IMG/VR virus record: IMGVR_UViG_3300014204_000110
Reading direction: 5' to 3' (one strand)
Length of the DNA: 64,000 nucleotides
Source: a virus
Taxonomy: Duplodnaviria > Caudoviricetes
Position numbers and translations under genes: made by a program. Position 1 is the first letter of the stretch, and every line of letters starts with the position of its first letter. Below the pieces are notes generated by a model, which did not search any database, was not told where the DNA came from, and saw only the letters and a list, made by a program, of their open reading frames with translations. Below are positions 3 to 18,110 of this stretch, in pieces.

Positions 3-1535
3 CAAGTTCGAACATTTGAAATAAATTATAGTCAGAGTAGATGGGAAAAGGATCTTGCTAAATTAAAAAAAGCAAGAAGTGTTGCTGCTACAATGATGCA
101 AGAAGGAGTTGGTGACGATTTTGGATATAGTTATTCGTGGCTTGATAGATTAAATATTTTATCAGATGTCAGTCCAATGAGTCCTGAATACAAAGAAGCT
201 AAAATGATCGTAGACAGTCAGATCAAATTTGGAATGCTGAATGATAAGGAGCTATTAAAATATAAAAACTCTATTAAAATGAGACAAGCTAGGATACGTA
301 AATACGAGTTATACGAAAAGCGATTTGCTGGAAAATTATTTAATCCTGATACAGAACTTAATATACAATCTATTAATGATGATATAAAAGCAGGAGCAAA
401 TTATAGTTTACCTGAACGAAGTTTAGGATGGTTATACGAGCAATTTACAAATACTAATACTTTCTTAGTTAATAAATTTTGGGCAGTTAAAGATCCATTA
501 GAACATTATAAGATGTCTAGGATATATGGAAAAGAATATAAACCTTGGGATGAACCAATACGTAGTTGGGCTAAACCAATGTTAAATTCATTGTTAGAAA
601 AAACAAATCCAGTTGAAGGAACTATATCAGCAGGTAGTCTAGGATATTTATTTGGTGGAGGTCCTTTAGGAGGACTAATTGGTAGTGCGGTTGGTTTTGG
701 ATATGGAAGTATAAATGGTATTTATAGAACACTTACTAATTCAGCTTTTATTCCTGAAGATGTTAAAACTAGACGAGAAATAAATTCTTATTTTGATGCA
801 GCTAAGTATGAACGAAATAATATGATGGCTAGTTTATCATCTGGACTTACTCAACAGGAATATTTAAAAGAACAGAATGCTACACTTACTGCTTTTAATA
901 ATAACAAAGGAAGTGTTGTTGCTAATCTTTTCAGAGGTGCTTCTGTTTTTGAAAAACCATATATAGAATCATTTTTAAATACTAAAGATAAAAAAGAAAG
1001 AGAGAATATACTTAAATATATTCCAGAAGATCTTGCTATGGCTTTAAAGAAACAATGGAGTCAAAATGATAGTAAAGAAGCAACTGGAGAATATGTTAAA
1101 TTAAGTAGTGCTGAACTTACAAAAGGTGCTCCTAAATATAAGTTTAGTAAGCAAATAATGGATCCAGCAGTTAATCTAGAAGATATTGAATTGAAAACTA
1201 TTAATCAAGAAGGACTTGATAAGTTTGAATTTGGTCTTGGATGGAATGAACAGATGCTTAGAATTCAACAGTCTAATCGATCTATTCAGGCCGAAACTAT
1301 AAGTAGATTAAATCCAGAGACACAATCATTAGGACCAAATATAAGTTCAGCAAATATACGTGGACTTATAAATAACTATTTTAGTAGTAATAATATAAAA
1401 TCTTCTACTAATGTATATATAGATAATACTCAAGAAGAATATAATCAACTTGAAGTTGTTATACGACGAGATAGATCTAGAACAGTTATTAATGCTTTAA
1501 ATAATCGTAAAAAATATGGATTAAGTAATGAATAA
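3..1535 (+). CDS. C-terminal part of a giant virion internal / tape-measure-like protein (5' truncated by window)
   Basis: The frame is open from position 3 to the ORF-track ATG at 93, so the gene starts upstream. It has a Gly-zipper hydrophobic segment (GSLGYLFGGGPLGGLIGSAVGFGYG) and lies just before the baseplate module. Confidence 0.5.
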   Translation, partial: QVRTFEINYSQSRWEKDLAKLKKARSVAATMMQEGVGDDFGYSYSWLDRLNILSDVSPMSPEYKEAKMIVDSQIKFGMLNDKELLKYKNSIKMRQARIRKYELYEKRFAGKLFNPDTELNIQSINDDIKAGANYSLPERSLGWLYEQFTNTNTFLVNKFWAVKDPLEHYKMSRIYGKEYKPWDEPIRSWAKPMLNSLLEKTNPVEGTISAGSLGYLFGGGPLGGLIGSAVGFGYGSINGIYRTLTNSAFIPEDVKTRREINSYFDAAKYERNNMMASLSSGLTQQEYLKEQNATLTAFNNNKGSVVANLFRGASVFEKPYIESFLNTKDKKERENILKYIPEDLAMALKKQWSQNDSKEATGEYVKLSSAELTKGAPKYKFSKQIMDPAVNLEDIELKTINQEGLDKFEFGLGWNEQMLRIQQSNRSIQAETISRLNPETQSLGPNISSANIRGLINNYFSSNNIKSSTNVYIDNTQEEYNQLEVVIRRDRSRTVINALNNRKKYGLSNE

Positions 1536-4500
1536 ATTTGATGAACGTAATGAAAATATAAAAGATCAAAATTGGTTTATAAGAACAACTTTTAAAATTG
1601 GTGTTTTATCTGCTGCAACTTTTGGTATTTATAAAATGCGTGGTCCAGCAAAAAGTCTTGCTGATAAATATTTAAATCAATATAAAGATAAAATTATAGA
1701 ACGAGAATCATGGAAAAAACTTGATTCAAAAACTAGAATGCTTGGAAGTACTGCAAGTATTAATCAACCTAATTTTGGATTAGATCTAGATGATCAAGAA
1801 TTTGATAGAATGTTTCAAAAGAAAGACGATTTTGTTTTTACATTAGAAACTGATCCTCTTAAAGTTTTAGATTTAGAAACTCAAGAAAATTCTCTTATAA
1901 AAACTATTGAACTTGATATTGGTAATGATGCAGTTATAGATAAACATGATGTTTTATTTAAACTAAGAAAAGATGCACTTTATGAACGTATAAATACTTC
2001 ATCTCTTTTAAGAATGGAAGATAGAGCAGCTTTAGAAAGTATTAATAATATTAAAGATTCTGATAAACTTGAAGCACTTCATAATTTCTATATGTCTAAT
2101 GATCTTAATTATTATAGAAAATATAAGCAAAAATTAACTGCAGTTACTCATGATTATAGAACTTCAATGAATAAAATGTATGTTAAATTTGGACATAATC
2201 CAAAGATAACTTCTGACATTGCAAAAGATTTTATTTATGGAACTGCTAAATTTGATGCAAGTCCTGAAACTGCTGTAAAATTAAGATATCAAGCTAAAGA
2301 ACTTAAAAAGGATATGTATCAACCTATTAATGTTTTTGAATTACTTAAACAAAAGAAACCTATTACGTCTGGATCATTTGTTAAAAAAGATTTAACAGAT
2401 CAATTTGAAAAAGATATAGCTAGTTTTGATTATAGTAATTTACTTAAAGATCTTGGTGAAAAAATCGAAGAATTACAAGATAAAGAACTTAGACCAAAAT
2501 CTTATGTTAAAAATGTGTCATATACAATAGCAAGAGAAAATTCTTTTGGATCTGAAGAACGTTGGTTTTTAAATATAGCATTACAGCATGAAACTAGAGG
2601 AACTGCTGAAATTAGAGTTCCAGTATCTCAACATGGTCTTATTCCTGGATCTAAAATGAGTGTAACTGAACAACTTGATGGTTTTTATTTAAAACCAGAA
2701 AAACATTTTGTTCCTAATTTATTACATACAAATCTTTCAACTGATTATCAAAATAAAACTCAAATGATTCTTAAGAAAGTTTTTAATATTCTAGATGGTA
2801 GTCAAATGGAACGAGATTTTGCAGATAATCCACAATCATTTGCAAGAAGTGTTCAAAATATTATAACTAATTTACTTGATGATCCAATTGCTGGACGATC
2901 TGGTAGAGATTTTATAAAAATGAATAGATTAGTTTTTCCTAATCCATCTCCAAAAATAAGTAAATATTATCGAGAAAGATTAGGTGATATAGTTGCAACT
3001 GGACGATCTATGAAATCGTTTTCTCAAAATTTAAAAAATAAATCAAATATGATGATCATTGATCTTGACTTTGAAACGATATCTAGAGATACTCCTGGTC
3101 TTAATTGGATGGCAAAAGATGATTTTACTGAAATTACCGAAGTCGGTTTTGTTGTACAAGATTATGAAAATGGTAAACTTATTAAAACTGATATGGATAA
3201 AATACATAGTAATCATGCAGTACATGCTATTGATGGATGGAGAGAAAAAAAGAATGCTATTAATTGGATACGAAGTCAAACTCATAACTCTGAAAAAATG
3301 ACCGATGTAGAACTTATAGACTCTTGGAAATCTCAAGTTAATAATGATGCTGAATGGTCAAGACTTAGACATGGTAAAACTTTTCATAGTAATCATGATA
3401 TAGCACAACATGCTGCAAATAAATTATTAATTTCTATTAAAAAAGCTGTAAGTGAAAGAAAGAAAGTTTTTATAAATACTAAAAACTCTAGATTTGACTT
3501 AGAATTTCTTAAAGCATACGCTGGACATGAATGGAGTTATTTAAAAAAATATGTTCAGTTTATTGATTCTCAAAGTATTGCTCATCTTTATAACATAAAA
3601 GGTCAACAAGGATCCATGAGTCTTAGTAACATTATGATAAGAATGATGAAAGGATATGGTGCTACAAGAGATGATATACTTCCAGTAGCTAAAGGTAGTC
3701 TAACTCATGCTATTCGATGGTTAAAAAGTAAAGATAGAAAATTATGTAGTATCGATGATGCTATTATAGATGAAATGGAAAAAAGTAAAGTTCTTGGTCT
3801 TGCACATAGTTCTACTGTTGATGCCCTAGCTTCTAACTTTATACTTTTTAAATCTCATGAAGACTTATTTGGTCATCCAGAAATATATAAAGAATTTTCT
3901 GAGATAGAAAAGTTTTTAGCAAGATGTAAAAATTCTTCATCATTAAGCGAATCTATGGAAGAAGCTAAATTAAGAGAAGTATATTCTACTGTTAATGGAA
4001 TGACTATAAGCAGTCATATGTTAGCTCAAGGACAAGCGGCTAAAAGAATGATGTCTAGAATAAGTAATCATCATATAAGTTCGTATACTGATAGTCCATT
4101 ATCTAAACAATGGGATCAATTTCATGCTGGTGTTAGAGTATCACCATCAGATCGTTTTTTAAAGGAAATGAATAATAGCAAAGATAAACAATTATATAAC
4201 AAATATTTTAAAAGTGTATTTCTATCTCGTGGAGAGATAGGAATGTATAAAGGTATTTCTGCAGATGCGATGACTAATAATTTTCAACATCATGTCATTC
4301 TTGATACAATACATGTATTTAATCCTTATATGGGTGAAGGTGGATATAATGCTGTAAGTACTGAAGCCTTTAAAAATTATAAAATACATTTTACTGAACG
4401 AGTTGATTTATCTCAAGTTCAATCTGGAGGAGAAGATCCAATACTTAATAAACGTCTTATAGATATGCAAAATAAAATATATAAAGAGGCACGAGCACTT

Positions 4501-7500
4501 GCAAACGGAGATCATGGTAAAATAAATAAACATCATCTAGAAATGGCTGCAAGAAAAGTAGTTGAAACTATGGATAGTCTAGGTGAAACAATAATTAATC
4601 CAGTTGATAGATCAAATACTTTAAGTCATGGTGATGCTAATATTAAAACGTCTAAAAAAGAATTTGGTGGTAAAATACTTAATGTGGTTACTAATCTAGA
4701 AGCTGGTAAAATCAGTATGCACGCTGATATTGAATATTTAGCTAATGGAGAATCTTTTGAAGATATGCCATTTAGATTAAGAAATGAAAGTACTAAATCT
4801 ATGGGTGTTGTAGATAATTATAATTCATTACTTATTGCTAATGGTGCTAATCATTTATCAGATGCTGGATTTTTAACAAAAGGTTATGTTCATGCTCAAA
4901 AATCTATGCTTACTTTTAAAATTATGAGTAATTTATTTGATACTTATAATGATCCAAATGCTTCTGAAGTTGAAAAACGATATGCTGAAAAAACATTACA
5001 AAGATTAGCTAAAGATGTAAAAGGTCAACCATTTGATATTAATAATCGTCAGATAGTACATGATCCTGATGCTAATCCTGAATTTAGTAATATTCTTGAT
5101 CCAATGGAAATAGAACAAAGTAAAAAATATTATGGTAATGTTGATATGAGTTTTTCTAAACTTGATCAATATATGGTTGATGCTAGAATTGTATGGACTG
5201 AAGAAAAGTTTAATCAATGGCTTGGTTTATGGGGTGGAGAAAAGAATCTTAGAAAGTTTATTAATCAATCAATATCCAGTCATACTCATTATATAGAAAA
5301 ACAACTTAAATCTACTGGTAAAACTTTAGGACATCTAGAACAATCAGCTATACAGGATTATTCAACTTATTTAAATGAATGGTTTTTACCATCTATGGAA
5401 AAAGTTAAATCAGGTAAAGCTGCTATGTATTGGGAACCATTTAAAAAATATAAAGATGGTTCTACTATGACATTTGGATATAGAGGACCTTCTAGATATT
5501 CTCTTTATGGAATTGCTTCTGGAAATAAACCAGTTGCTAAAGAAATTAAAATGAGATCTAGTATATTACATTTTATAACTCAACCATTTAGTCATGTTAC
5601 TCCTTCTACTGTTAAAAGTATTAAAGCAAGTAAAAGAGCTTATGGTGGAAATAAATTTTCATCAGCTTATGCAACACTACGAAGATACAAAGATACTATT
5701 TGTTCAAATGCTATGGCTAAAGGACACGATTTAAATCTTGATGATATTAATAGATTACTTGATAATAAAGGCGACATTGATGTTAAAAAATTAGCAAGAT
5801 GGTCCTTTAGTGATGAAGAAAAATCTAAAATAATAAGTAATGTTATAGACGATCTTCAAGAAGCTACAAAAGATGGTAGTAAACTTCAAGGAGCTATTGA
5901 AACTATTCTTAATGAAATGCAACAAGATAAATTTGAAAAAGCTTTTGAAAAAGGAAGTAATTTAATTACAACTGTTGCTGCTGAAAAGAATTGGGAAAAT
6001 TTAGCTAAAGAAAAAGGTGGAGTTTTTACATATTCAAAACGTCCTGAACTTGGTGGAGGTTTTACTTTTCATATAAATGAACTTCTAGATAGAACTCCTG
6101 GTTTCACTGATGATGAAGTAACTAAAGCAAAAAATCTTAGTTTAGATTTCTTTGAACATATATATAAAAATTCTCCTGATGGATTTGTAAAAGATTTTGA
6201 TAGAGAAAAAGGACAAGTTACTTTAAAATATCTTGCAATACATGCTGATACTTCTAAAGCTAATGTAATGAATTATATAAATAAGAGTGCTCAAGAAAAA
6301 GGATATGGATATCTATCTACTCCTGCTAAATATCAAAGACATTTGTTTAATGCAATGAAAGAATATGAACTTGAAGTAAAAAAGTTATCATCTGGAAGTA
6401 ATCAAATAAAAGTTCAAGAAGAATTTCTTAAAAAACAATATCTTTTATATACATTAAAAGGATTTTTAATGGATTCATCTTCAATCTATGCCCGTTCTGC
6501 TCAAGAATATGTACCAGTAGGACTTCAATCTCATATTATTGGAACATCAGCTGTAATTGAAAAAGCTAGAGAGATTATGTATCAAGGTGGAATAGAAAAA
6601 GCTTATGGAGTTAAAGGAAGTTCTAAACATGATCAATTAATTAAACGATTAGCTGAAGAAAGTGATTTTACTGATGTTATTGTTTCAGAAGATGTATTTA
6701 AAAAAATGCAATATCCTGATGGAACTAATATATATGAAAAATTAAAAAAGACAAAAACAAAAGAAGAAGTTAAAAGGGTGATGTCTGGATTAGAATCACA
6801 TTTTATGTATTCTAATAGTAATCCAAATATACAAGCTGCATCAGATGCAATACAATCACATAGATTAACAATAGTTCCTAAAGATGTAAGAAAATATTTA
6901 GCAGTTAGTAATAGTTTAATTCATGCTAACTCTATGCAAGTTAAATTAGCTGGTCGTGATAATGATGGAGATAGAATGGGTTTTGTTGTACATGCTTATG
7001 AAACTGCAGATGATTTAGTTAATCTACAAAAAGAACATTCTGAATATAAACGTAAAGTACTTGAATCTTATATTGGACGGCCACGAACTGCTGAAGAAGT
7101 AAAAGCTGGAGATGCTAGTAAAATTATTACATTTGGAGAATATGGTAAAAAAGGTTGGGTTAGAGATTTTTCTAATGGAAATGTAAATTATACCTATTAT
7201 GATGATGCTGGTAGAGAAGTTCATACTTCTGTTCCTATAAATAGTTCTAAAGCTGAAGAACTTTTAGGAGATCCATTCTTTTCAAATTATGCTAAAAATG
7301 CTTATACGTTAGAAATGAATACTCCAGCAAGGGCTACTACTCAAGAAGCATATAAACAGTTAGATCGAGTATGTGCAACTGTTGTATCAAAAAATAATAT
7401 AGGTTTAGCAACTAATATAGCTTATAAAATGACTCGACATCTTATGCAAGTTGGACTTACTGGTAAAAATCCTGATGCTGCAAAATTACTTTATGGTAAC

Positions 7501-8373
7501 TTATCTACTGGAGATGCTGGAATTGCTCAATTATTTATTAGTTTAGCTAAACATGAAACAGATATAAAGGGGTTAGAACAAGTATCTAAAGTTTATGCTA
7601 ATCCTTTAACCAGAGATGCTGAGACTCATAATGGAGCTAAACAGTTCTTTGAAAGACTTATGCCTAAAGGAATGGAAGGTCGTGGAGAAGAAATTTATAG
7701 AATATTTACTGATTCTATGAAAGCGTATAATGAATATACTCCAAGAGATTCTATTAGTTCTGAGATTATAAAATCAATTGATGACATTGATGGTCTTAAA
7801 GATGGAACTAATATTATGAACGCAATAATGTCTACTGCTCATGTTGATTTTTTAAATGATTATGGTGATCAAATAAGAGAACAATATAGATCTCCTACTC
7901 AAGAAATGTTTGATGTTCTTGGTAAGAAATTTAAATTTGATCCTAGTAAGATTAATTTTAAAAAAGGTGGTAAAATAGGAGCAGTTGGAGCAGCAGTTTA
8001 TTTAGCATCTAATTTCTTTAGACCTCATCAATTAAGTAATTCATTAAATCCATTTGATGCTTTTACAGATCTAGGATCAGATATTGATAGTTCTCAAAAT
8101 AGAAAACTATTTACGGATTTAGAACTTGAAAGATCAATACCATTGGATATGGTAAATGCTTCCTTTTCTAAAAAAGCATATATTAAACTTAATAAAAGAA
8201 ATAATAATCAGGATAAGTCTATGATTATTAATGACATGCTAAAACAAGGTTATAGTAGTACTAATCCTTTATTGCATGAATGGAGAACTTCACCAAGCTA
8301 TGACTATGCAGACTATACTACCAACGTAGGCTCCTTTGGAACAACTTCATTAGATAGAAAATCTAGATATTAA
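1528..8373 (+). CDS. 2281-aa putative virion-packaged single-chain two-barrel (RNAP-like) polymerase with DEDDh 3'-5' exonuclease domain
   Basis: LAGRDNDGDRMGFVVH (DNDGD at 6958-6972) aligns with beta' NADFDGDQMAVHV. ExoI is DLDFET (3061-3078), ExoII is SRFDLEFL (Asp 3496) and ExoIII is AHSSTVD (His 3805, Asp 3820). Hydrophobic helices lie near both termini. Confidence 0.6.
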   Translation: MNKFDERNENIKDQNWFIRTTFKIGVLSAATFGIYKMRGPAKSLADKYLNQYKDKIIERESWKKLDSKTRMLGSTASINQPNFGLDLDDQEFDRMFQKKDDFVFTLETDPLKVLDLETQENSLIKTIELDIGNDAVIDKHDVLFKLRKDALYERINTSSLLRMEDRAALESINNIKDSDKLEALHNFYMSNDLNYYRKYKQKLTAVTHDYRTSMNKMYVKFGHNPKITSDIAKDFIYGTAKFDASPETAVKLRYQAKELKKDMYQPINVFELLKQKKPITSGSFVKKDLTDQFEKDIASFDYSNLLKDLGEKIEELQDKELRPKSYVKNVSYTIARENSFGSEERWFLNIALQHETRGTAEIRVPVSQHGLIPGSKMSVTEQLDGFYLKPEKHFVPNLLHTNLSTDYQNKTQMILKKVFNILDGSQMERDFADNPQSFARSVQNIITNLLDDPIAGRSGRDFIKMNRLVFPNPSPKISKYYRERLGDIVATGRSMKSFSQNLKNKSNMMIIDLDFETISRDTPGLNWMAKDDFTEITEVGFVVQDYENGKLIKTDMDKIHSNHAVHAIDGWREKKNAINWIRSQTHNSEKMTDVELIDSWKSQVNNDAEWSRLRHGKTFHSNHDIAQHAANKLLISIKKAVSERKKVFINTKNSRFDLEFLKAYAGHEWSYLKKYVQFIDSQSIAHLYNIKGQQGSMSLSNIMIRMMKGYGATRDDILPVAKGSLTHAIRWLKSKDRKLCSIDDAIIDEMEKSKVLGLAHSSTVDALASNFILFKSHEDLFGHPEIYKEFSEIEKFLARCKNSSSLSESMEEAKLREVYSTVNGMTISSHMLAQGQAAKRMMSRISNHHISSYTDSPLSKQWDQFHAGVRVSPSDRFLKEMNNSKDKQLYNKYFKSVFLSRGEIGMYKGISADAMTNNFQHHVILDTIHVFNPYMGEGGYNAVSTEAFKNYKIHFTERVDLSQVQSGGEDPILNKRLIDMQNKIYKEARALANGDHGKINKHHLEMAARKVVETMDSLGETIINPVDRSNTLSHGDANIKTSKKEFGGKILNVVTNLEAGKISMHADIEYLANGESFEDMPFRLRNESTKSMGVVDNYNSLLIANGANHLSDAGFLTKGYVHAQKSMLTFKIMSNLFDTYNDPNASEVEKRYAEKTLQRLAKDVKGQPFDINNRQIVHDPDANPEFSNILDPMEIEQSKKYYGNVDMSFSKLDQYMVDARIVWTEEKFNQWLGLWGGEKNLRKFINQSISSHTHYIEKQLKSTGKTLGHLEQSAIQDYSTYLNEWFLPSMEKVKSGKAAMYWEPFKKYKDGSTMTFGYRGPSRYSLYGIASGNKPVAKEIKMRSSILHFITQPFSHVTPSTVKSIKASKRAYGGNKFSSAYATLRRYKDTICSNAMAKGHDLNLDDINRLLDNKGDIDVKKLARWSFSDEEKSKIISNVIDDLQEATKDGSKLQGAIETILNEMQQDKFEKAFEKGSNLITTVAAEKNWENLAKEKGGVFTYSKRPELGGGFTFHINELLDRTPGFTDDEVTKAKNLSLDFFEHIYKNSPDGFVKDFDREKGQVTLKYLAIHADTSKANVMNYINKSAQEKGYGYLSTPAKYQRHLFNAMKEYELEVKKLSSGSNQIKVQEEFLKKQYLLYTLKGFLMDSSSIYARSAQEYVPVGLQSHIIGTSAVIEKAREIMYQGGIEKAYGVKGSSKHDQLIKRLAEESDFTDVIVSEDVFKKMQYPDGTNIYEKLKKTKTKEEVKRVMSGLESHFMYSNSNPNIQAASDAIQSHRLTIVPKDVRKYLAVSNSLIHANSMQVKLAGRDNDGDRMGFVVHAYETADDLVNLQKEHSEYKRKVLESYIGRPRTAEEVKAGDASKIITFGEYGKKGWVRDFSNGNVNYTYYDDAGREVHTSVPINSSKAEELLGDPFFSNYAKNAYTLEMNTPARATTQEAYKQLDRVCATVVSKNNIGLATNIAYKMTRHLMQVGLTGKNPDAAKLLYGNLSTGDAGIAQLFISLAKHETDIKGLEQVSKVYANPLTRDAETHNGAKQFFERLMPKGMEGRGEEIYRIFTDSMKAYNEYTPRDSISSEIIKSIDDIDGLKDGTNIMNAIMSTAHVDFLNDYGDQIREQYRSPTQEMFDVLGKKFKFDPSKINFKKGGKIGAVGAAVYLASNFFRPHQLSNSLNPFDAFTDLGSDIDSSQNRKLFTDLELERSIPLDMVNASFSKKAYIKLNKRNNNQDKSMIINDMLKQGYSSTNPLLHEWRTSPSYDYADYTTNVGSFGTTSLDRKSRY

Positions 8374-8561
8374 TGGGTATCAAGACAAAATTAGTTATTG
8401 ATCTTCCAGATGATGTTGATTATACTCAACACGTTAATAATATTAAAAATCAAATATCTAGAATTAATGGATTAGAAACTATTGTAAGTTTACAGACGAT
8501 AGATGATCCAATCAGCCTTAGTCCAACCAATATAAGAAAAGTAAGTGAAGCTAATGACTAA
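8373..8561 (+). CDS. small hypothetical protein
   Basis: 62 aa; TAATG overlap with the upstream gene and overlap with the downstream gene. Confidence 0.6.
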   Translation: MGIKTKLVIDLPDDVDYTQHVNNIKNQISRINGLETIVSLQTIDDPISLSPTNIRKVSEAND

Positions 8562-11500
8562 TATTGATCCAAATACAATTGGAAATGCTTTATATTTTAT
8601 TCTTACTAAAAAAGAACCTTATAGTAAATATATATCTATTTATTCTTCAGATCAATCTCTTGGTAAATCTACTGTTCCTAATTTAATTATAGAAGTTTAT
8701 AATAAATATTTTAAGCTTCAAGTTAATCTTAATACTCAATCTAAAAGTAATATATTTATTTTACAAGGTGGAGATGTTATTAAAACTGGTAGTGGTAATA
8801 CTTATTTAATAACTCATTCTGAAGGAACAGTTGGAACTTGGCCAAAATTAACAGATATAGATAATCTAGAAATTAATTCTACTATTAAACAGTATGAAGT
8901 TATAAGACCTAATTTTGATAATATTAAAGAAACATTACTTGAAGATCTTCAAAATATTGGAAAAGAAATATTATCCACCGATAGTGAAACTAACCGATTA
9001 CTTGAGCAAATTCCTGAAACATTAAATAATTCCAAAGATATTAAAAGTGCAGATGGTGTAGACTTTTATTCATTAGGTGAAGGTGCTTTACAAATTGGTG
9101 ATTTAATTTTTGTTGTTGATCCTACACAACTTGCTTTTAATTCTCAAAACGGATATCAATATTTTCCTACTTTAAGAACTCAAGGTAATCCAAAAATACC
9201 AACTACTCAACAAGTTAAAAATTTATCTATTAATTTGATATTTCCAAATGAAGATAGTATAAATTATCAACTTTTAAATTTATATGCAATGTTTAAAAGA
9301 ACTCCATTTGTTAATATAAGAAATAAAGATATTTGTGAATTTTTTAAAGATATTTGTTTTATGGAAGAATGGCTTCCAGTTGCTCTAGAAAGTATTCAAA
9401 TACAATCAGTTCCTGGTTTTCCAAATACATTACAAGCATCAATAACAATACTTCCTTTTGATTATAGAATGATGAGTGATGGATTTCAAGCACTTCTTTC
9501 AATGGAAGATGTAGAACGTCAACAAACTATTTTATATCGAAATGAAGAATATGATAGATTAATTAGAAAAGCAGAGTCTAAACTTGATGAACAATCTGTA
9601 TCAGAAGAACGATTTCTAGATGTACTTATTCATGATATAGATAAATCTCCTGATTTTAGAAACAGTTTGCCATTTAGAGCATTTTATCAATCTTTGATAG
9701 CTGATCGTAAATTTATAATGAATAGTTCTGGTAAAATAGTTTCTACCTCTAAAAAAGGTAGTTATGATATTGCTTGGTTTAGACCAACTAAGACTGAAAA
9801 TTTACTTAATGAATATAAAGCTTCTTCTAATAATAAATCAATTACATTATCCTATAATTATATTTCTAAAGATTTTCAAACATTTTCTAAAATAGTTTCT
9901 AATGAACGCACTGATAAACAAGTACGACTACTTAAACAACTTACAGATTTTTATACTTCTATTAGAACTAAAGATGATCTTATAAAAGAAATGGTTACTT
10001 TTTTTACAAGAAAAGAAGATTTTTATAATATAACTGAAGGAAAATTTCAAGAACTTTCTAATAATATAATTCCTAATTTAGTTACTCGATTTGGTATTAC
10101 AATGGAAGGTCAAAGTGAAGTAATTATTAAAAATTGGTTTGATCTTCTTACCAAAGGTTTTGCTATAAAACAAGGTTGGGTACAAACATTTGAATCAATA
10201 CAAAGTATAAATAATTTCTTTGGTGGTAATTTTTCTGTTGATAATACTGATGTTTTAGGATTTTTAAATGGTGTTACTTATACTGATAAAGATACCTTTG
10301 GAGTTGGAACATTTCAATGGGGTATTAAGAAAATATGGGATTGGATTGATACTGGAACTGATAAACAAAAAGAATTGAAAAAGAAAAACTTTTCAGCATT
10401 TCTAGGAGAATTAAGAGTTGCTATTACTAAAGAAATTACTTCTGAAACTCTTGTTGTAAATCCTACTGCTGATGGTGAAATGTTTAGTATTGCTAGAATA
10501 CCAATTGTATCAGAAGATATTGTTATAGATAATGTTAGTGATATAATTGTTGGTTGGTCAATTGTGTTTTCTAATAAATTTATTCCAATGACATTACAAG
10601 CATATAAATATCCATATTATCAACATATTGGTTCTGAAGATCCAGTAATGTCTTTAAATATAACATCAATATATAATAAAAATAAAGATTTAAAATCACA
10701 ACTTTCTATATTATCTGAACGTCTTCATGAATCAGCAAAAGTTGTTACTCTTAATGCTCCAGAGTTGATAACATATCTAGATCCTAGAATAACTATTAAT
10801 GCTGAAGCAAATAATTTATTTAATTCTTTTGGAATTAAAAAAGTTGTATTTGATTCTTTTAATATTGTTAATATTGATGGGCAACCAAATAGTTGGAATA
10901 TTGCAGTTAATTTTACTCAATCGAATTTTACAATATCTGATTATCATGGTGTATCTCATGTTCCTTCTAATGAAATTGCTATTCTTGAACTTGCTAAAAT
11001 AGTTTCAAGTATAGAAAAAATTAATGATAATTATGTTGTAATGGATTATAAAACTAGAAGTGGTAATTTATTAAATCTCAATGATATTCTTAAAATAAGA
11101 TTTCTAGCTTGGTCAGTAAGTAATATTGATCAAAAATATAATATCATTGAATATATTAAACAAGTTAAAAGTGGAAGACAAAGTAAAAATACTGGAACTA
11201 TTGGAAATGAATTAGCTGATAAATATTTACAAGAATTTTATAAATCTATAGGTAGTCTAGAAAGTTTTTCATTATCACAACCAAATACTACAGAAAATTT
11301 TAATGTACGAGAAGTTAATATAACTAAAACTAAAATTTTACAAGATTTAATATCTAATACGCAATATAAAAATATTTTAGATTTTATAAATATTAAAACT
11401 GAAGAATTATTTAAATTAAAATCTGAACTTATACGATCTTTGATATTTAATGATAAATCTTGGTTTAGAAATTATTTAGATAGATATGATGCTAGGTATA

Positions 11501-14500
11501 GAGCTAATCCTATATTGTTACCTTATGTAATAGCTATATTTGATACAATTGAACTTGAACAAAAAAATAAAGTAACATCAAAATTATCACCAATATTTAA
11601 TTCAATGGAAGAATCTTTTTCTTCAATGGTTTCTATAGATTTTGCAGATAAAATATTAAGAGATCCAGTTGTATATAAAAAAATAATTACTCCAGAAATA
11701 ATTGGTGAAACTCAGTTTAATAATATAGAACGTTATAAAAAGTTATCTAGAGTTAATTGTTATAATGATTTTGATATTCCTAATTTTTCAGATACTGTTG
11801 TTTTAGGACCAGATTTTTATTTATATAATAATATAGTTGATATTTCTGAAAACAGATATTATATATCTGAATCTCTTAAACGATATGCGAAAATTGGTAA
11901 ACTTGGAGCAATGATGTCTTTAGTTGAATCAACTGATGCTCTTATAAAGTATGACCAAATTATATCACAACTTGAATCTATTGAACCTGAAGTTAAAGAA
12001 GCGGTATCAGTATCTCTAGCTGATGATATTCCAGGATATACTTCTGATGGAAATATAAAAGAAATTATAGCTAAATTAAAAAATATACAGACTCAAATAT
12101 CTTTATGTAATAATAGTATTGATGAAATAAATACAATTTCTGATGATAATCAACAATTATTAGATAAATTTAAAAATGATTTTGAAAATAATTTATATCC
12201 TGGAATGAAAAAAGAAGAATTTGATACCGCTTATAAAATAATGGAATCAAAAGTTAGTAAATTAAAATCTGGTATAACTGTTGAAAATATTGATTTTAAA
12301 AAGATAAATCTTATACATTCAGCTAGAACAATGACAATGTTAGAAATTTTTGAAATATATAGTGTTTTAAATAATTATATCATTGATGAAATTTCAAGTA
12401 AAAATAATATATTTCAAATGAAACCAACTAAACTTGATGATCAAGGTTTAACCAAAAGTTCTTCTGAAAAAGAAGTTGCACAAAAATTGTATAATTATGT
12501 TAGATTTGTCCTTATAAATAATAAAAATATAACTACATCTTCATTAGAATCTGGTGGAACTTTTTCAAGTGATAGTTCAACTGAAGATAATTTTAAAAAA
12601 GAACTTAAAAAACAATTTAGTGCTGGTGGTATTTCTGATTCATTTAATAAAACTTTATCATTACCCAATTTGCGTAATATACAAAACTATTTATTTAATA
12701 AAATAGGTTATTATATAAGATTAAATTCTTTTATTGTTGAATATGGAAAAAGCAATTCTATAGGAAAAATTGATTTAACTAATCTTCCAGAACTTAGTTA
12801 CTTAGATTTTTGGAATTTTCGATCAATTGAAGAAAATGATAGAAAAATTAAAATAATAAAAGAGTTTTCAGAAAACCAAGATAATAAAAAAGATACAACA
12901 ATTAAAATGTATCCAACATTTAAATTATTTTTTGTTGAAGAAGATAAAAATTTTATAACACATAATTTTGATGATTATTATACACAGAATGCTATTCAAT
13001 CTATTGAAATTGTAAGTAATAAAAATTCTGCAAGTAAAACCGCAAGAATTATTTTAAGTAATGTTACTAATTCACTTACTGATAAAATGAGTCTTCTTAG
13101 AGAATCTGAAGATTTATTTGGTAATAGTATTGGTACTGATGTTAAAGCTAAAAACTTATTTCTAGGAACTCTAGATGTTAAACCTGGAACTCAAATAATT
13201 ATTAAAATGGGATATGCTCCTTATGATAATCTATTAACTACTGTATTTCATGGAAGAATTATAGAGATGAATCCTGGAAGCATGGTGGAAATGATTTGTC
13301 AGGATTTTGCATCACAACTAAATCATAAAGTAGTATCAGAAAAATTTGGTGTTGCTTCTACTGTTAAAGATTATGGTGATATTGCTTCAGCTACTCTAGA
13401 TATGATTCCTGGACTTGAAAAACTTGGTAAAGAATCTAAATTTAATATTATAAATACAGATAATTTTACTGGAAGAAATTTAAGAAATATTGGAAGTAAT
13501 TTTGCTAATAGATATCTTATGAGTAATCTTTTTGGATCACTTTCAGCACTTAATGCTGCTAAAGATAATCCTAGAGATGAAAACATATATTTAAACTATA
13601 GTGCTGTAAATACTGTATATCATAAACCAACGTTTGACTGGATTATATATGATCAGACAGTCTGGAGTGTATTACAAGAATTATGTTTATATAATAGAGA
13701 CAAAATTGCGACAATTAGGACATATAATGAAGATCCAATGTCTAGTAATAATAATCTACGAGAAACAATAGTAGTTGGTGATAAAGCTGGTTATTATAAA
13801 TGTACAGATTCTTTTGCATTATCTTCTTTAAATATTAAAGAACTTGATGCATTTGCTTCTGAATGGGATACTATTAAAAATTTAATTTTAAATAATAAAT
13901 ATAATTCTGCATATTGGGAAGTTACTAGAGAAGTAGCAAGTCTTAATGAAGGTGAAGTGTTTATATATAGACGTCTTAATAAATCTGGTGTTCAGTTATA
14001 TTCTTTTCTACAGAATAAATTAAATTCTCTTGTACTTATTGCTCATCTTTTAGATACTTATAAATTAAATAGTAGTCAGTATGTATTTGATCAACTTCTT
14101 ACATCTCTTACTGAAAATAAGTTTTTTAAAGATGATTTTAAAGAAATGATATATAATATTTATAATTTTAATAAAAATTATTTTATTAATACTGATCAAT
14201 TAAATTCTACTATATTTGAGAGTTCTACAAAACAAGTTATTAACTTTGAAAAGATTATTACTGATCTTAGAAAATATATTAAAGATGTACAATTTGTAAA
14301 AGAATCATATTATAATGTAAAAGATACATCTTCCAATATTGATCAAAAATATCTTAATGATCCTCAGTATAAAAAGATTCAAAAACATCATCTTATAACA
14401 GATAGTTCAGATATTATATCAAATAACATTTCTCTTAATTCTTCATTTTCTAATGTTGTTAATGTTTATTATACCAATGAACCAAATATAAATACTGCAT

Positions 14501-15546
14501 CGTTAGATAGTATTAGTCCTGATAAAATAAAAACAAGTGTTAATATGTGGAGTGTTAAAGCTTTTGGTGATCAGAAAGATGAGTTCTCTAGAATATTAAA
14601 TAGTTATCAAAAGAATATAGATACAAATTGGTTTGATGTTTCTAATACTCTTGCTAGTTTTTATGGTAAATTTCAAAGAATTAAAGGACAAGAATCTTTA
14701 AAAAAATATAAAAATTTACAAAATTTTGAATTACCAAGATGGGATTTATTTCCATCATTTGTTCTTGTAGGTGTAAGATTACTTCAAAAAGAAGTTGAAA
14801 GGATGTATCAAGGTACAATTGAAATTGTTGGTAATCCTAAAATACAACCTTATGATATTATACATTTACAAGATTACACAAATGATATGCATGGTGTTGT
14901 AGAAGTTGAAGAAGTCATTCATTCTTTTACTCCTGAACGAGGATATAGAACTATAATTACTCCTAATCTTATAACTTATGATAGAGATCCTATACAACTT
15001 CAAGATATTCAAATTATTAATCAAATATATGATTTTTCTAATGTGAGAAGAAATGTTGCTCATGTTGCTAATATTGCTACTGCTGGTATGTTTAGTATTG
15101 TTTCAATGCTAGGACTTGCTGCAGGTGGTATTGGTGGGACAGTCACAGCAATTGGTGCAGGATTACCAGCATTAGGATTTTTATATAATGGAACAGTTGG
15201 AGCAGTTGTTAAACAACAGAAGTTTTTGTATGATCAATTAGGACATATTCTTGGAAGAGATTGTATTAATTTTACTTCTTTATTATATCATGGAATGCCA
15301 TTTATGACTGGATTTGATGGTGTTGATTATACTAATTTAAAAACTTTAATGAATCATAAAGTTGCTGATATTAAAAATCCAATTAATCGATTTTTATCTT
15401 TTGGAGATACTTTTGATGCTAATATTATCACTAACTGGAATCCTGAAGAATATGGAATTCTTCAATCTATATTTGGAAAGTTACCTATTACTAGCGATAT
15501 TGCTAGTTATCAAAATTCAGGTTTAAAGACGGGATTTACTGAGTAA
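8554..15546 (+). CDS. giant baseplate hub protein (gp27/gpD-like) fused to tail-tube-initiator-like domains
   Basis: Hub-type motifs KPGTQIIIKMGY..VFHGRIIEM and MYQGTIEIVGNPKIQPYDIIHL..VEEVIHSFTPERGYRTIITP; it precedes the spike/gp25/J genes. ATG 8554 preferred over GTG 8545. Confidence 0.65.
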   Translation: MTNIDPNTIGNALYFILTKKEPYSKYISIYSSDQSLGKSTVPNLIIEVYNKYFKLQVNLNTQSKSNIFILQGGDVIKTGSGNTYLITHSEGTVGTWPKLTDIDNLEINSTIKQYEVIRPNFDNIKETLLEDLQNIGKEILSTDSETNRLLEQIPETLNNSKDIKSADGVDFYSLGEGALQIGDLIFVVDPTQLAFNSQNGYQYFPTLRTQGNPKIPTTQQVKNLSINLIFPNEDSINYQLLNLYAMFKRTPFVNIRNKDICEFFKDICFMEEWLPVALESIQIQSVPGFPNTLQASITILPFDYRMMSDGFQALLSMEDVERQQTILYRNEEYDRLIRKAESKLDEQSVSEERFLDVLIHDIDKSPDFRNSLPFRAFYQSLIADRKFIMNSSGKIVSTSKKGSYDIAWFRPTKTENLLNEYKASSNNKSITLSYNYISKDFQTFSKIVSNERTDKQVRLLKQLTDFYTSIRTKDDLIKEMVTFFTRKEDFYNITEGKFQELSNNIIPNLVTRFGITMEGQSEVIIKNWFDLLTKGFAIKQGWVQTFESIQSINNFFGGNFSVDNTDVLGFLNGVTYTDKDTFGVGTFQWGIKKIWDWIDTGTDKQKELKKKNFSAFLGELRVAITKEITSETLVVNPTADGEMFSIARIPIVSEDIVIDNVSDIIVGWSIVFSNKFIPMTLQAYKYPYYQHIGSEDPVMSLNITSIYNKNKDLKSQLSILSERLHESAKVVTLNAPELITYLDPRITINAEANNLFNSFGIKKVVFDSFNIVNIDGQPNSWNIAVNFTQSNFTISDYHGVSHVPSNEIAILELAKIVSSIEKINDNYVVMDYKTRSGNLLNLNDILKIRFLAWSVSNIDQKYNIIEYIKQVKSGRQSKNTGTIGNELADKYLQEFYKSIGSLESFSLSQPNTTENFNVREVNITKTKILQDLISNTQYKNILDFINIKTEELFKLKSELIRSLIFNDKSWFRNYLDRYDARYRANPILLPYVIAIFDTIELEQKNKVTSKLSPIFNSMEESFSSMVSIDFADKILRDPVVYKKIITPEIIGETQFNNIERYKKLSRVNCYNDFDIPNFSDTVVLGPDFYLYNNIVDISENRYYISESLKRYAKIGKLGAMMSLVESTDALIKYDQIISQLESIEPEVKEAVSVSLADDIPGYTSDGNIKEIIAKLKNIQTQISLCNNSIDEINTISDDNQQLLDKFKNDFENNLYPGMKKEEFDTAYKIMESKVSKLKSGITVENIDFKKINLIHSARTMTMLEIFEIYSVLNNYIIDEISSKNNIFQMKPTKLDDQGLTKSSSEKEVAQKLYNYVRFVLINNKNITTSSLESGGTFSSDSSTEDNFKKELKKQFSAGGISDSFNKTLSLPNLRNIQNYLFNKIGYYIRLNSFIVEYGKSNSIGKIDLTNLPELSYLDFWNFRSIEENDRKIKIIKEFSENQDNKKDTTIKMYPTFKLFFVEEDKNFITHNFDDYYTQNAIQSIEIVSNKNSASKTARIILSNVTNSLTDKMSLLRESEDLFGNSIGTDVKAKNLFLGTLDVKPGTQIIIKMGYAPYDNLLTTVFHGRIIEMNPGSMVEMICQDFASQLNHKVVSEKFGVASTVKDYGDIASATLDMIPGLEKLGKESKFNIINTDNFTGRNLRNIGSNFANRYLMSNLFGSLSALNAAKDNPRDENIYLNYSAVNTVYHKPTFDWIIYDQTVWSVLQELCLYNRDKIATIRTYNEDPMSSNNNLRETIVVGDKAGYYKCTDSFALSSLNIKELDAFASEWDTIKNLILNNKYNSAYWEVTREVASLNEGEVFIYRRLNKSGVQLYSFLQNKLNSLVLIAHLLDTYKLNSSQYVFDQLLTSLTENKFFKDDFKEMIYNIYNFNKNYFINTDQLNSTIFESSTKQVINFEKIITDLRKYIKDVQFVKESYYNVKDTSSNIDQKYLNDPQYKKIQKHHLITDSSDIISNNISLNSSFSNVVNVYYTNEPNINTASLDSISPDKIKTSVNMWSVKAFGDQKDEFSRILNSYQKNIDTNWFDVSNTLASFYGKFQRIKGQESLKKYKNLQNFELPRWDLFPSFVLVGVRLLQKEVERMYQGTIEIVGNPKIQPYDIIHLQDYTNDMHGVVEVEEVIHSFTPERGYRTIITPNLITYDRDPIQLQDIQIINQIYDFSNVRRNVAHVANIATAGMFSIVSMLGLAAGGIGGTVTAIGAGLPALGFLYNGTVGAVVKQQKFLYDQLGHILGRDCINFTSLLYHGMPFMTGFDGVDYTNLKTLMNHKVADIKNPINRFLSFGDTFDANIITNWNPEEYGILQSIFGKLPITSDIASYQNSGLKTGFTE

Positions 15547-16856: not shown

Positions 16857-18110
16857 ATGGCTACACGACGATCATATATAAATATTGTTGAAGATGGAAG
16901 AACTCGATTAGAACAAAATAGTCCTGTTAATAATTTTAATCAACAAGGAATTTCAAAAGCATTTCTAGATATTCTTGGTGTTGAAGTTGAAAAACAATAT
17001 GATAATCTAGAGTATGTTTATAGGGCAATTGATCCAACAAAAGCTACTGGAAGTGATCTAGAAAAAATAGGATATCTTGTTGGAGAATATAGGACTGAAG
17101 CAGTTACACCATCTGATTATTCTACTACAAACTTTTATTTTTATATCGATCCTAAAATTAATATGAGTTTATCTTCAATGATAAAACGAAGTTATACATA
17201 TGAAGAAAGAAATACTCTTGTTTCTAATGGTTTTTTAACTAATGACATATATGGAGAACCACAAAATTTAATTATACCAATTGATACAGTTGTTCAAAAT
17301 TTTGATGGAACAATATCTTATACAACTATTAATTCTGTTATTTTAAATAATACTGATAGTTATGTTGGAATAATTGCTACAAATACTGGACCAAGTTATA
17401 ATGTAGAAACTAATACACTTATTGCTCATACACTTCATCAAATTCCAGAACTTAGAAAAATTTCACAATATATTAAATGTTCAAATAGATTTCCAATTCA
17501 AAATGGAAAATATTCAATAAATGATGATGAATTAAGATATAAAATTTCTACTTCTAGAAGTTCAATTAGATCAAATGAATTATCAATACGTAGATCAGCA
17601 TTAAGTGTTCCTGGTGTTAGAGATATTCTTTTTGAAAAAAATAAATATGGTGCTGGTACTGTTAATATAATTATTGATGGAGTATCACCACTAATTTCTC
17701 AAGGGCTTATAGATGCTGTTAAAGAAAAAGTTCAACAAGAACAATCATATGGTGATACAATATATGTTAATAGACCAGAATATATTGGAATAGAATTAGA
17801 TATTGGTATTGTAATTACTTTAGGTACTATAGATGAATTAAGTGTTAAACAACTTGTTAAAAGTTCAATTATTCAATATATTAATGATCTTCCTATTGGT
17901 GGAGAAATTATTTGGAATAGAATAATAGATGTTGTAATGGATGTTTCTGGAGTTGAAGATATTGTACCAAGAACATTTAAATTAGGTGAGTACGATATTT
18001 TCCATAAACTTATTAAAAATCAAATAATACTACAATTTCAAAATCAAAAAGCCAGTCTAACACAAAAGTTTTTTTGTGATTATGGACTTTGTAATATATG
18101 TATAGTATAA
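16857..18110 (+). CDS. baseplate J-like wedge protein
   Basis: ATGSDLEKIG, GPSYNVETNTL, DDELRYKI, ALSVPGVRD, GAGTVNIII, YINDLPIGGEI..VSGVED; GGAG RBS. Confidence 0.9.
   Translation: MATRRSYINIVEDGRTRLEQNSPVNNFNQQGISKAFLDILGVEVEKQYDNLEYVYRAIDPTKATGSDLEKIGYLVGEYRTEAVTPSDYSTTNFYFYIDPKINMSLSSMIKRSYTYEERNTLVSNGFLTNDIYGEPQNLIIPIDTVVQNFDGTISYTTINSVILNNTDSYVGIIATNTGPSYNVETNTLIAHTLHQIPELRKISQYIKCSNRFPIQNGKYSINDDELRYKISTSRSSIRSNELSIRRSALSVPGVRDILFEKNKYGAGTVNIIIDGVSPLISQGLIDAVKEKVQQEQSYGDTIYVNRPEYIGIELDIGIVITLGTIDELSVKQLVKSSIIQYINDLPIGGEIIWNRIIDVVMDVSGVEDIVPRTFKLGEYDIFHKLIKNQIILQFQNQKASLTQKFFCDYGLCNICIV

Follow-up and report, generated by a model that had tools for sequence, protein, structure and literature searches.

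What does a 3′-5′ exonuclease do inside a polymerase that is encoded among the tail genes of a phage? The question is raised by the gene at 1528..8373 of a 64,000-nt stretch of the Caudoviricetes record IMGVR_UViG_3300014204_000110 (this whole stretch is hereafter the window; positions are counted in it, and all features described are on its + strand). The gene specifies a protein of 2281 amino acids, here called the exonuclease-polymerase protein, in which an earlier note, made from the letters of the DNA, had recognised an intact DEDDh (DnaQ-like) exonuclease; as possible contexts, it had named a proofreading transcriptase, a two-barrel DNA polymerase analogous to PolD and an ejected nuclease. 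Judging from predicted fold and conserved motifs, residues ~508-790 are an intact two-metal DEDDh 3′-5′ exonuclease domain of the DnaQ/RNase T type, predicted to be active (3049..3897). Of the extent first proposed, 3049-3850, the start stands, while the end runs slightly further, to about residue 790 (nt 3897).

The exonuclease domain

A script placed all five catalytic residues exactly where the earlier note had read them, i.e., D514 at 3067, E516 at 3073, D657 at 3496, H760 at 3805 and D765 at 3820. The first two form the ExoI motif D514-F-E516 on strand β1 (3067..3075; context IIDLDFETIS), D657 closes the ExoII motif N653-x-x-F656-D657 (3484..3498; context KNSRFDLEFL), in which the N/F and F/Y variation is conservative, and the last two make up an ExoIII motif of the “h” subtype, H760-x4-D765 (3805..3822; context LAHSSTVDALA). 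The pentad is invariant in 27 of 27 family members (see below). Two further blocks lie between these motifs: S561-D-H563-G after β3 (3208..3219), colinear with V-H-G-I of the epsilon subunit of Escherichia coli DNA polymerase III (Pol III), and a segment from the β5 aspartate D680 (I-D-x-Q) to S696-L (3565..3615), colinear with epsilon T-D-S-L ... N-S-L-D, where D680 is again invariant in all 27 members.

When the E. coli dnaQ sequence is read against the family alignment, six blocks are colinear between epsilon and the exonuclease-polymerase family: ExoI (LDTETTG in epsilon, LDFETIS in the family), the block after β3 (VHGI and SDHG), ExoII (HNAAFDIGFM and TKNxxFDLxLL), β5 (TDSL and IDxQ), the SL motif (NSLDAL and GSLAL) and ExoIII (HGALLDA and AHxSPVAD). 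Relative to epsilon, the domain has two helical insertions, one of about +57 amino acids before ExoII and one of about +46 before ExoIII.

The fold points in the same direction. An AlphaFold2 (AF2) model of residues 495-795, built from 11 sequences (predicted local distance difference test, pLDDT, 80.5; predicted template modelling score, pTM, 0.82), has its strands and helices in the order of the DnaQ/RNase H-like fold (β1-β2-β3-helix-β4-helix-β5-helix). The catalytic residues sit where this fold predicts: the first strand carries the DxE, D657 opens the helix that follows the fourth strand, and the last long helix begins with D765, H760 being in the loop just ahead of it. The top Foldseek matches of the domain are all DEDDh enzymes (RNase T, Orn, TREX1/2 and Pol III epsilon), at an E-value of only ~1e-3, a probability of 1.0 and a template modelling score, normalised by target, of ~0.55. 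All of the best 50 structural matches are DEDD-type exonuclease domains or exo-like folds, and the shape neighbours in the ESM Atlas, like the language-model neighbours, are PF00929 clusters.

The closest known systems to the domain are, therefore, the DnaQ-like DEDDh enzymes of the PF00929 clan: Pol III epsilon, RNase T, exonuclease I, the DnaQ domain of Streptococcus thermophilus Cas2-DEDDh, the N-terminal domain of Staphylococcus aureus DinG, TREX1/2 and Orn. From these, the present domain differs by its two helical insertions (~57 and ~46), by a divergence too great for the Pfam and PDB profiles, and by its situation inside a polymerase of 2281 residues, whereas the known ones are free or fused to DNA polymerase, helicase or Cas2.

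Relatives of the whole protein were found by several routes. A word-index search with the C-terminal third returned ten full-length relatives of 2238-2400 amino acids; the same kind of protein search with the exonuclease domain matched the query protein itself and nothing else. When 1.8 billion cluster representatives were searched exhaustively by phmmer with residues 480-1679, 18 proteins came up, of 2234-2392 residues save three incomplete ones (350, 865 and 1874). The matches of the full-length relatives all begin at the exonuclease domain, and no stand-alone DnaQ-like protein closely related to the domain was among the cluster representatives. A tblastn search of 50,697 phage records with the domain and the polymerase core found no relative. 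Four more IMG/VR contigs and one contig of a metagenome-assembled genome (MAG) came from scans with the conserved C-terminal tail; their open frames, of 2258-2441 codons, match the domain profile at E-values of 1e-19 to 1e-93. A single-sequence scan of IMG/VR gave no relatives, alignment queries being needed, and of two scans of genome contigs the first gave no family member and the second one contig.

In the resulting family of 27 members (2230-2440 residues), every sequence keeps both the DxDxD of the polymerase and the D-E-D-H-D of the exonuclease, and neither active site has been lost in any (0/27). The conservation of the fusion, for which the earlier note had called, holds down to 19% identity. 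A full-length alignment could be made of 23 sequences, 19-48% identical to the window protein, and only 24 of its columns are invariant, among them the five DEDDh residues and the three Asp of DxDxD. Eleven of the 24 fall within residues 508-775, 12% of the length (hypergeometric p = 3e-5); besides the pentad, these are G524, S561, H563, K652, D680 and S696. The five added sequences likewise keep D-E-D-H-D and D680. This pattern of conservation indicates that the exonuclease pentad is under strong selection and permanently fused to the DxDxD core.

The MAG contig mentioned above, CAYVGZ010000001.1 (L007; 196,613 bp), belongs to an assembly labelled Candidatus Bathyarchaeia. It is most likely a mis-binned jumbo-phage contig and not evidence of the host.

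The polymerase half

The exonuclease lies, as the earlier note had it, within a two-barrel polymerase-like protein. A model of residues 1090-2281 from 22 sequences (pLDDT 72; pTM 0.67), in which the last 175 residues are disordered, was compared with known structures: the polymerase core gave 413 Foldseek matches at E <= 1e-3, with Rpb1, A190 and β′ at the head, and the best 50 are all RNA polymerases (RNAPs), PolD DP2 not being among them. The structural alignments with Neurospora QDE-1 span residues 1-1020 of the core model, the second barrel being taken together with the rest. QDE-1 and the crAss-like phage phi14:2 protein gp66 are the close known systems for this half. No homologue of gp66 or of gp96 of Thermus phage P23-45 was detected by tblastn in the 50,697 phage records, and neither structure is among the best 50 structural matches, which need not exclude them.

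The catalytic loop of the β′-like barrel is formed by R1810 and D1811-N-D1813-G-D1815 (6955..6972); its three Asp are invariant, and the surrounding fold matches the largest subunits of RNAPs. This DxDxD loop and the overall likeness to RNAP largest subunits are those of a two-barrel RNAP; the combination that defines the PolD type, a replicase with an Mre11-like DP1 exonuclease, was not found in the protein. The Asn of the β′ motif N-A-D-F-D-G-D presumably corresponds here to a Gly.

Upstream of this loop, the position of the β′-type R-x-P is occupied in the window protein by S1764-N-P1766 (6817..6825). P1766 is invariant, and the Arg is present in 19 of 23 sequences. The four that lack it, the window protein included, are exactly the four that carry an Arg immediately ahead of the first Asp of DxDGD; four independent changes are needed to account for this reciprocal swap on a FastTree phylogeny. 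The alternation suggests that one essential Arg can be supplied from either position. By position relative to the β′ motif, we take the swapping Arg to be the equivalent of R962 of QDE-1. The latter residue lies in the loop before the catalytic motif and contacts the 2′-OH of the nucleoside triphosphate (NTP) and the RNA 3′ end (PMC9508822). If the two arginines are indeed equivalent, the swaps would favour ribonucleotide use, and we infer on that ground that NTPs may be preferred over dNTPs.

A candidate basic motif of the β-like barrel, E-K1118-G-Y-V-x-x-x-K1125, was located at 4879..4902 (K1118 invariant, K1125 conserved in at least 90% of the sequences). It resembles the G-N-K-G-V-I motif of β, and its assignment to the second barrel is presumptive. 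The second (β-like) barrel is expected to supply two basic residues (PMC7824862). Downstream of the catalytic loop, a conserved helical segment (VSKNNIGLATN ... QLFISLAKH; 7390..7554), with K1955, I1958, N1963, Q2001, K2008 and H2009 conserved, occupies the place of bridge helix and trigger loop. It forms long helices in the model, at a distance from DxDGD comparable to that in phi14:2 gp66, and is a putative bridge helix/trigger loop.

Conservation within the family is highest in the C-terminal tail, residues 2106-2281 (7843..8370), which the model nonetheless leaves disordered. The tail contains the motifs NFFRPNQLSNSxNPLDAFTDLG and PLDMVNASFSKQAF, with a Gly/Ala-rich hydrophobic stretch ahead of them at 2148-2164, and may be a signal for virion incorporation or membrane insertion. 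A strict hydropathy scan of the protein gave no clear transmembrane helix, only residues 18-34 and 2148-2164 being moderately hydrophobic.

Probable delivery with the genome and possible roles of the exonuclease

The exonuclease-polymerase gene sits in a conserved tail module, between a gene in tape-measure position and the baseplate genes. The same order, a protein of ~2040 amino acids, the polymerase gene, a protein of ~60 amino acids, one of ~2400 amino acids and Baseplate_J, is found in two relatives, namely a 30%-identical one on a 230-kb contig and the most distant one. There are precedents for two-barrel RNAPs that travel in the virion: gp96 of Thermus phage P23-45, fused to the tape measure (Chaban et al. 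2024, PMC10770324), which has a non-virion paralogue (gp64; gp62 in P74) (PMC10770324), and phi14:2 gp66 (Drobysheva et al., bioRxiv 10.1101/2020.03.07.982082). On the strength of these precedents, the conserved synteny and the overlapping stop and start codons in the module, the protein probably travels in the particle and reaches the cell along with the DNA. The case differs from that of gp96, which is the tape measure itself, comes from a siphovirus and includes metallopeptidase and membrane domains; in the present phage, a contractile-tailed jumbo phage, the polymerase has a gene of its own beside the one in tape-measure position, and sequence similarity between gp96 and this polymerase is undetectable.

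The reading that we favour, with moderate confidence, is that of an injected single-chain two-barrel RNAP of a jumbo contractile-tailed phage, the built-in exonuclease of which trims 3′ ends at genome entry. The DEDDh fold with its invariant D-E-D-H-D would coordinate two Mg2+/Mn2+ ions and take nucleotides off a free 3′-OH; throughout the family, it shares its chain with an intact DxDxD polymerase site. The protein would enter the cell with the genome and transcribe the first phage genes. Least certain is the further step, in which the exonuclease may act in cis on 3′ ends at the transcribing complex, either on a misincorporated or backtracked RNA 3′ end or on the 3′ end of the entering DNA; it would then replace cleavage factors of the Gre/TFIIS type, on which an injected enzyme cannot rely.

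Docking by complex prediction of the exonuclease domain against core residues 1391-2089 gave a score of 0.40, the best of three controls reaching 0.00, with 100% contact agreement between runs and a partner pLDDT of at least 76. The docking mark is reached by 58 of 80 solved complexes and two of 110 mismatched pairs; at <=0.60, it is reached by just seven of the 80 solved complexes and by both passing mismatches, and these calibration counts hold only roughly, as alignments made for this analysis were used. The docking lends weak support to cooperation in cis, shifting the odds that way. Action at the transcribing complex is favoured because no lineage splits or loses the two sites and because the docking score exceeds the controls.

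Several points weigh against this favoured account. The docking returned no interface, and its result is weak. Presence in the virion and activity of both sites are predictions from the genes. RNA cleavage is something that two-barrel RNAPs already perform in their polymerase site, and proofreading would seem of little use to an enzyme that transcribes early genes only. A stretch of about 300 residues sets the exonuclease apart from the first barrel, and the former may act alone. Among the structural matches, DEDDh enzymes specific for DNA cannot be told from those specific for RNA (Z differences <2). Sequence profiles, too, fail to see the domain: neither the whole protein nor the exonuclease domain has a match in Pfam or PHROGs; none of 11 domain homologues matches RNase_T (PF00929), even at E <= 10; phmmer and profile searches of PDB sequences with domain and protein returned only noise; and hhalign of a 22-sequence domain profile with the single E. 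coli DnaQ sequence gave a probability of 0.7 and aligned an irrelevant stretch. The match to RNase_T/DnaQ that the earlier note had proposed as a check was, hence, not obtained at the sequence level (Pfam, PDB profile or hhalign), and because of these negative searches the DEDDh assignment rests on fold, motifs and conservation. The missing RNase_T match is a matter of sequence divergence and contradicts neither the fold nor the active site.

A genome-wide view was obtained from a complete relative of the window phage (G001, IMGVR_UViG_3300040801_001810; 230,193 bp, direct terminal repeats, completeness estimated at 100%), whose family member is 36% identical. In this genome, a PolB with its own PolB-type exo domain occupies one 820-codon frame, and at the Pfam level there is no match to RNase_T, PolA, Rpb1 or Rpb2. 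T7-type RNAP (PF00940) had no match there either, which is uninformative as the control matched no genome. The tail-module enzyme may be the sole RNAP encoded by this phage, unless others are too divergent to detect. As its PolB has an exo domain, we also reject the idea that the exonuclease makes up for a lack of proofreading in the phage DNA polymerase.

Whether the two activities work together is the point at which the alternatives part. It is possible, if doubtful, that the exonuclease is a separate injected tool or weapon that merely shares the polymerase chain and is independent of transcription. It would then attack nucleic acids of the host or of defence systems (mRNA, the 3′ ends of tRNA, RNAs or DNAs used in defence) or process the phage genome's ends as they come in; an ejected nuclease acting independently is nearly as likely as action at the transcribing complex. 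The gene lies between giant tail-module genes that resemble those of ejected multi-domain proteins, the ~300-residue separation from the core would suit such a tool, free-standing degradative DEDDh enzymes (TREX1, ExoI, Orn and the CBASS, i.e., cyclic-oligonucleotide-based antiphage signalling, nuclease Cap18) match the domain as well as proofreaders do, and the direct terminal repeats of the complete relative imply that free DNA ends enter the cell. Against this reading, none of the 27 members has split off or lost the exonuclease or lost either active site, the exhaustive search found no stand-alone close relative of the domain, and its docking to the core is above all controls, though weakly.

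The two-barrel core could also be a DNA polymerase served by a DEDDh proofreader, in effect a single-chain analogue of PolD for repair or for fill-in at genome entry, which we consider improbable. Archaeal PolD does combine a two-barrel polymerase core with a 3′-5′ exonuclease, fusion of a DEDD exonuclease to a polymerase is otherwise a hallmark of proofreading DNA polymerases, the exo domains of PolC and of African swine fever virus PolB are among the structural matches, and the Asn of the β′ motif is replaced by Gly. That a two-barrel core can polymerise dNTPs is documented for PolD (PMC7281927, PMC4996933). The PolD-like interpretation entertained in the earlier note is nevertheless disfavoured by the PolB with exo domain in the complete relative, by the tail-module position with its conserved synteny and by the best 50 structural matches of the core, all RNAPs and without PolD DP2. 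The Arg that we equate with the 2′-OH-contacting R962 of QDE-1 has, moreover, been kept through four independent swaps of position. The DP1 exonuclease of PolD is a separate subunit of another fold in a replicase, whereas the protein described here has a DEDDh domain in the same chain and belongs to a tail module; PolD's own proofreader has a different, Mre11-like fold (PMC4996933). Very improbable, finally, is that the motifs arose by chance or survive as an inactive relic retained only as a structural spacer. In a protein of such length, a D-x-E, D, H-x4-D set might turn up by accident. No sequence profile matches the domain, and ~100 residues of insertions set it apart from epsilon, as such a relic might have it, but the invariance of the pentad, the AF2 fold in DnaQ order and top structural matches that are DEDDh only are at odds with it and, together, rule out a chance motif. 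Either of the findings that the earlier note had named as fatal to its claim, acidic residues that vary or a fold unlike RNase H, is the reverse of what we see.

What is new is the union in one chain of a DEDDh exonuclease and a probably tail-delivered two-barrel RNAP, each part being of a known kind. To our knowledge, the two-barrel RNAPs characterised so far all use the polymerase site itself for the removal of RNA 3′ ends, with help from factors of the Gre/TFIIS type. With a second, DEDDh site in its chain, the present enzyme would deal with transcript editing or arrest in another way; alternatively, phages would have bolted a nuclease onto an injected enzyme. The earlier note knew of no characterised two-barrel RNAP with a fused DnaQ domain, and in the literature searched, the coverage of which is incomplete, we found no description of one. 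The words “exonuclease”, “DEDD” and “DnaQ” are absent from the gp96 paper (PMC10770324), as is “nuclease” from the gp66 preprint (bioRxiv 10.1101/2020.03.07.982082), and a survey of jumbo phages that covers double-barrel RNAPs speaks of an exonuclease only where DNA polymerases are concerned (PMC7824862).

That the protein is the first DNA-dependent two-barrel RNAP with a dedicated second site for 3′-5′ editing or rescue of transcripts is a tentative proposal that we think rather unlikely to hold. If it were true, an editing RNAP would parallel the proofreading DNA polymerases and the coronavirus nsp14 exonuclease, and its editing site would have evolved in an enzyme that works alone in a hostile cell just after injection. 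Tail-delivered RNAPs, known from the crAss podoviruses and a single Thermus siphovirus, would with this family be extended to contractile-tailed jumbo phages that are uncultured, in proteins that are invisible to annotation by Pfam and PHROGs. The pentad, the DxDxD triad and the swapping Arg offer ready-made mutants for a clean biochemical test.

Neighbouring genes

Upstream of the exonuclease-polymerase gene, the window contains the 3′ end (3..1535) of the giant gene in tape-measure position, the product of which has ~2035-2050 amino acids in relatives; its stop codon is overlapped by the ATG of the exonuclease-polymerase gene. On the other side, a 62-codon gene (8373..8561), which falls below the minimum of the open reading frame (ORF) listing (80-100 aa), begins with an ATG that overlaps the stop codon of the polymerase gene (TAATG); its own stop overlaps the ATG at 8554, where the next giant gene probably starts. 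A gene of 57-60 amino acids occupies the equivalent position in two relatives (L001 and L002). The GTG at 8545 listed as the start of the downstream giant gene is probably wrong, and the ATG at 8554 is probably the true one.

The downstream giant gene (8554..15546; ~2330 aa) has a lysin-like segment and is followed by baseplate genes, with a baseplate wedge/J gene at 16857-18110 on its 3′ side. Residues 1939-2146 of its product match PHROG 20474 (“endolysin”, E 9e-43), and the product is probably a tail lysin or an ejection protein. Its C-terminal end consists of Gly-rich hydrophobic segments. There was no usable Pfam match for the neighbouring giant proteins or for the 62-aa protein.

The window as a whole is AT-rich phage DNA, with a guanine plus cytosine (GC) content of 0.20-0.30 over most of its length and nearly all long ORFs on the + strand. 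Between 32000 and 40000, the GC content rises to 0.35-0.43 against a background of 0.20-0.29.

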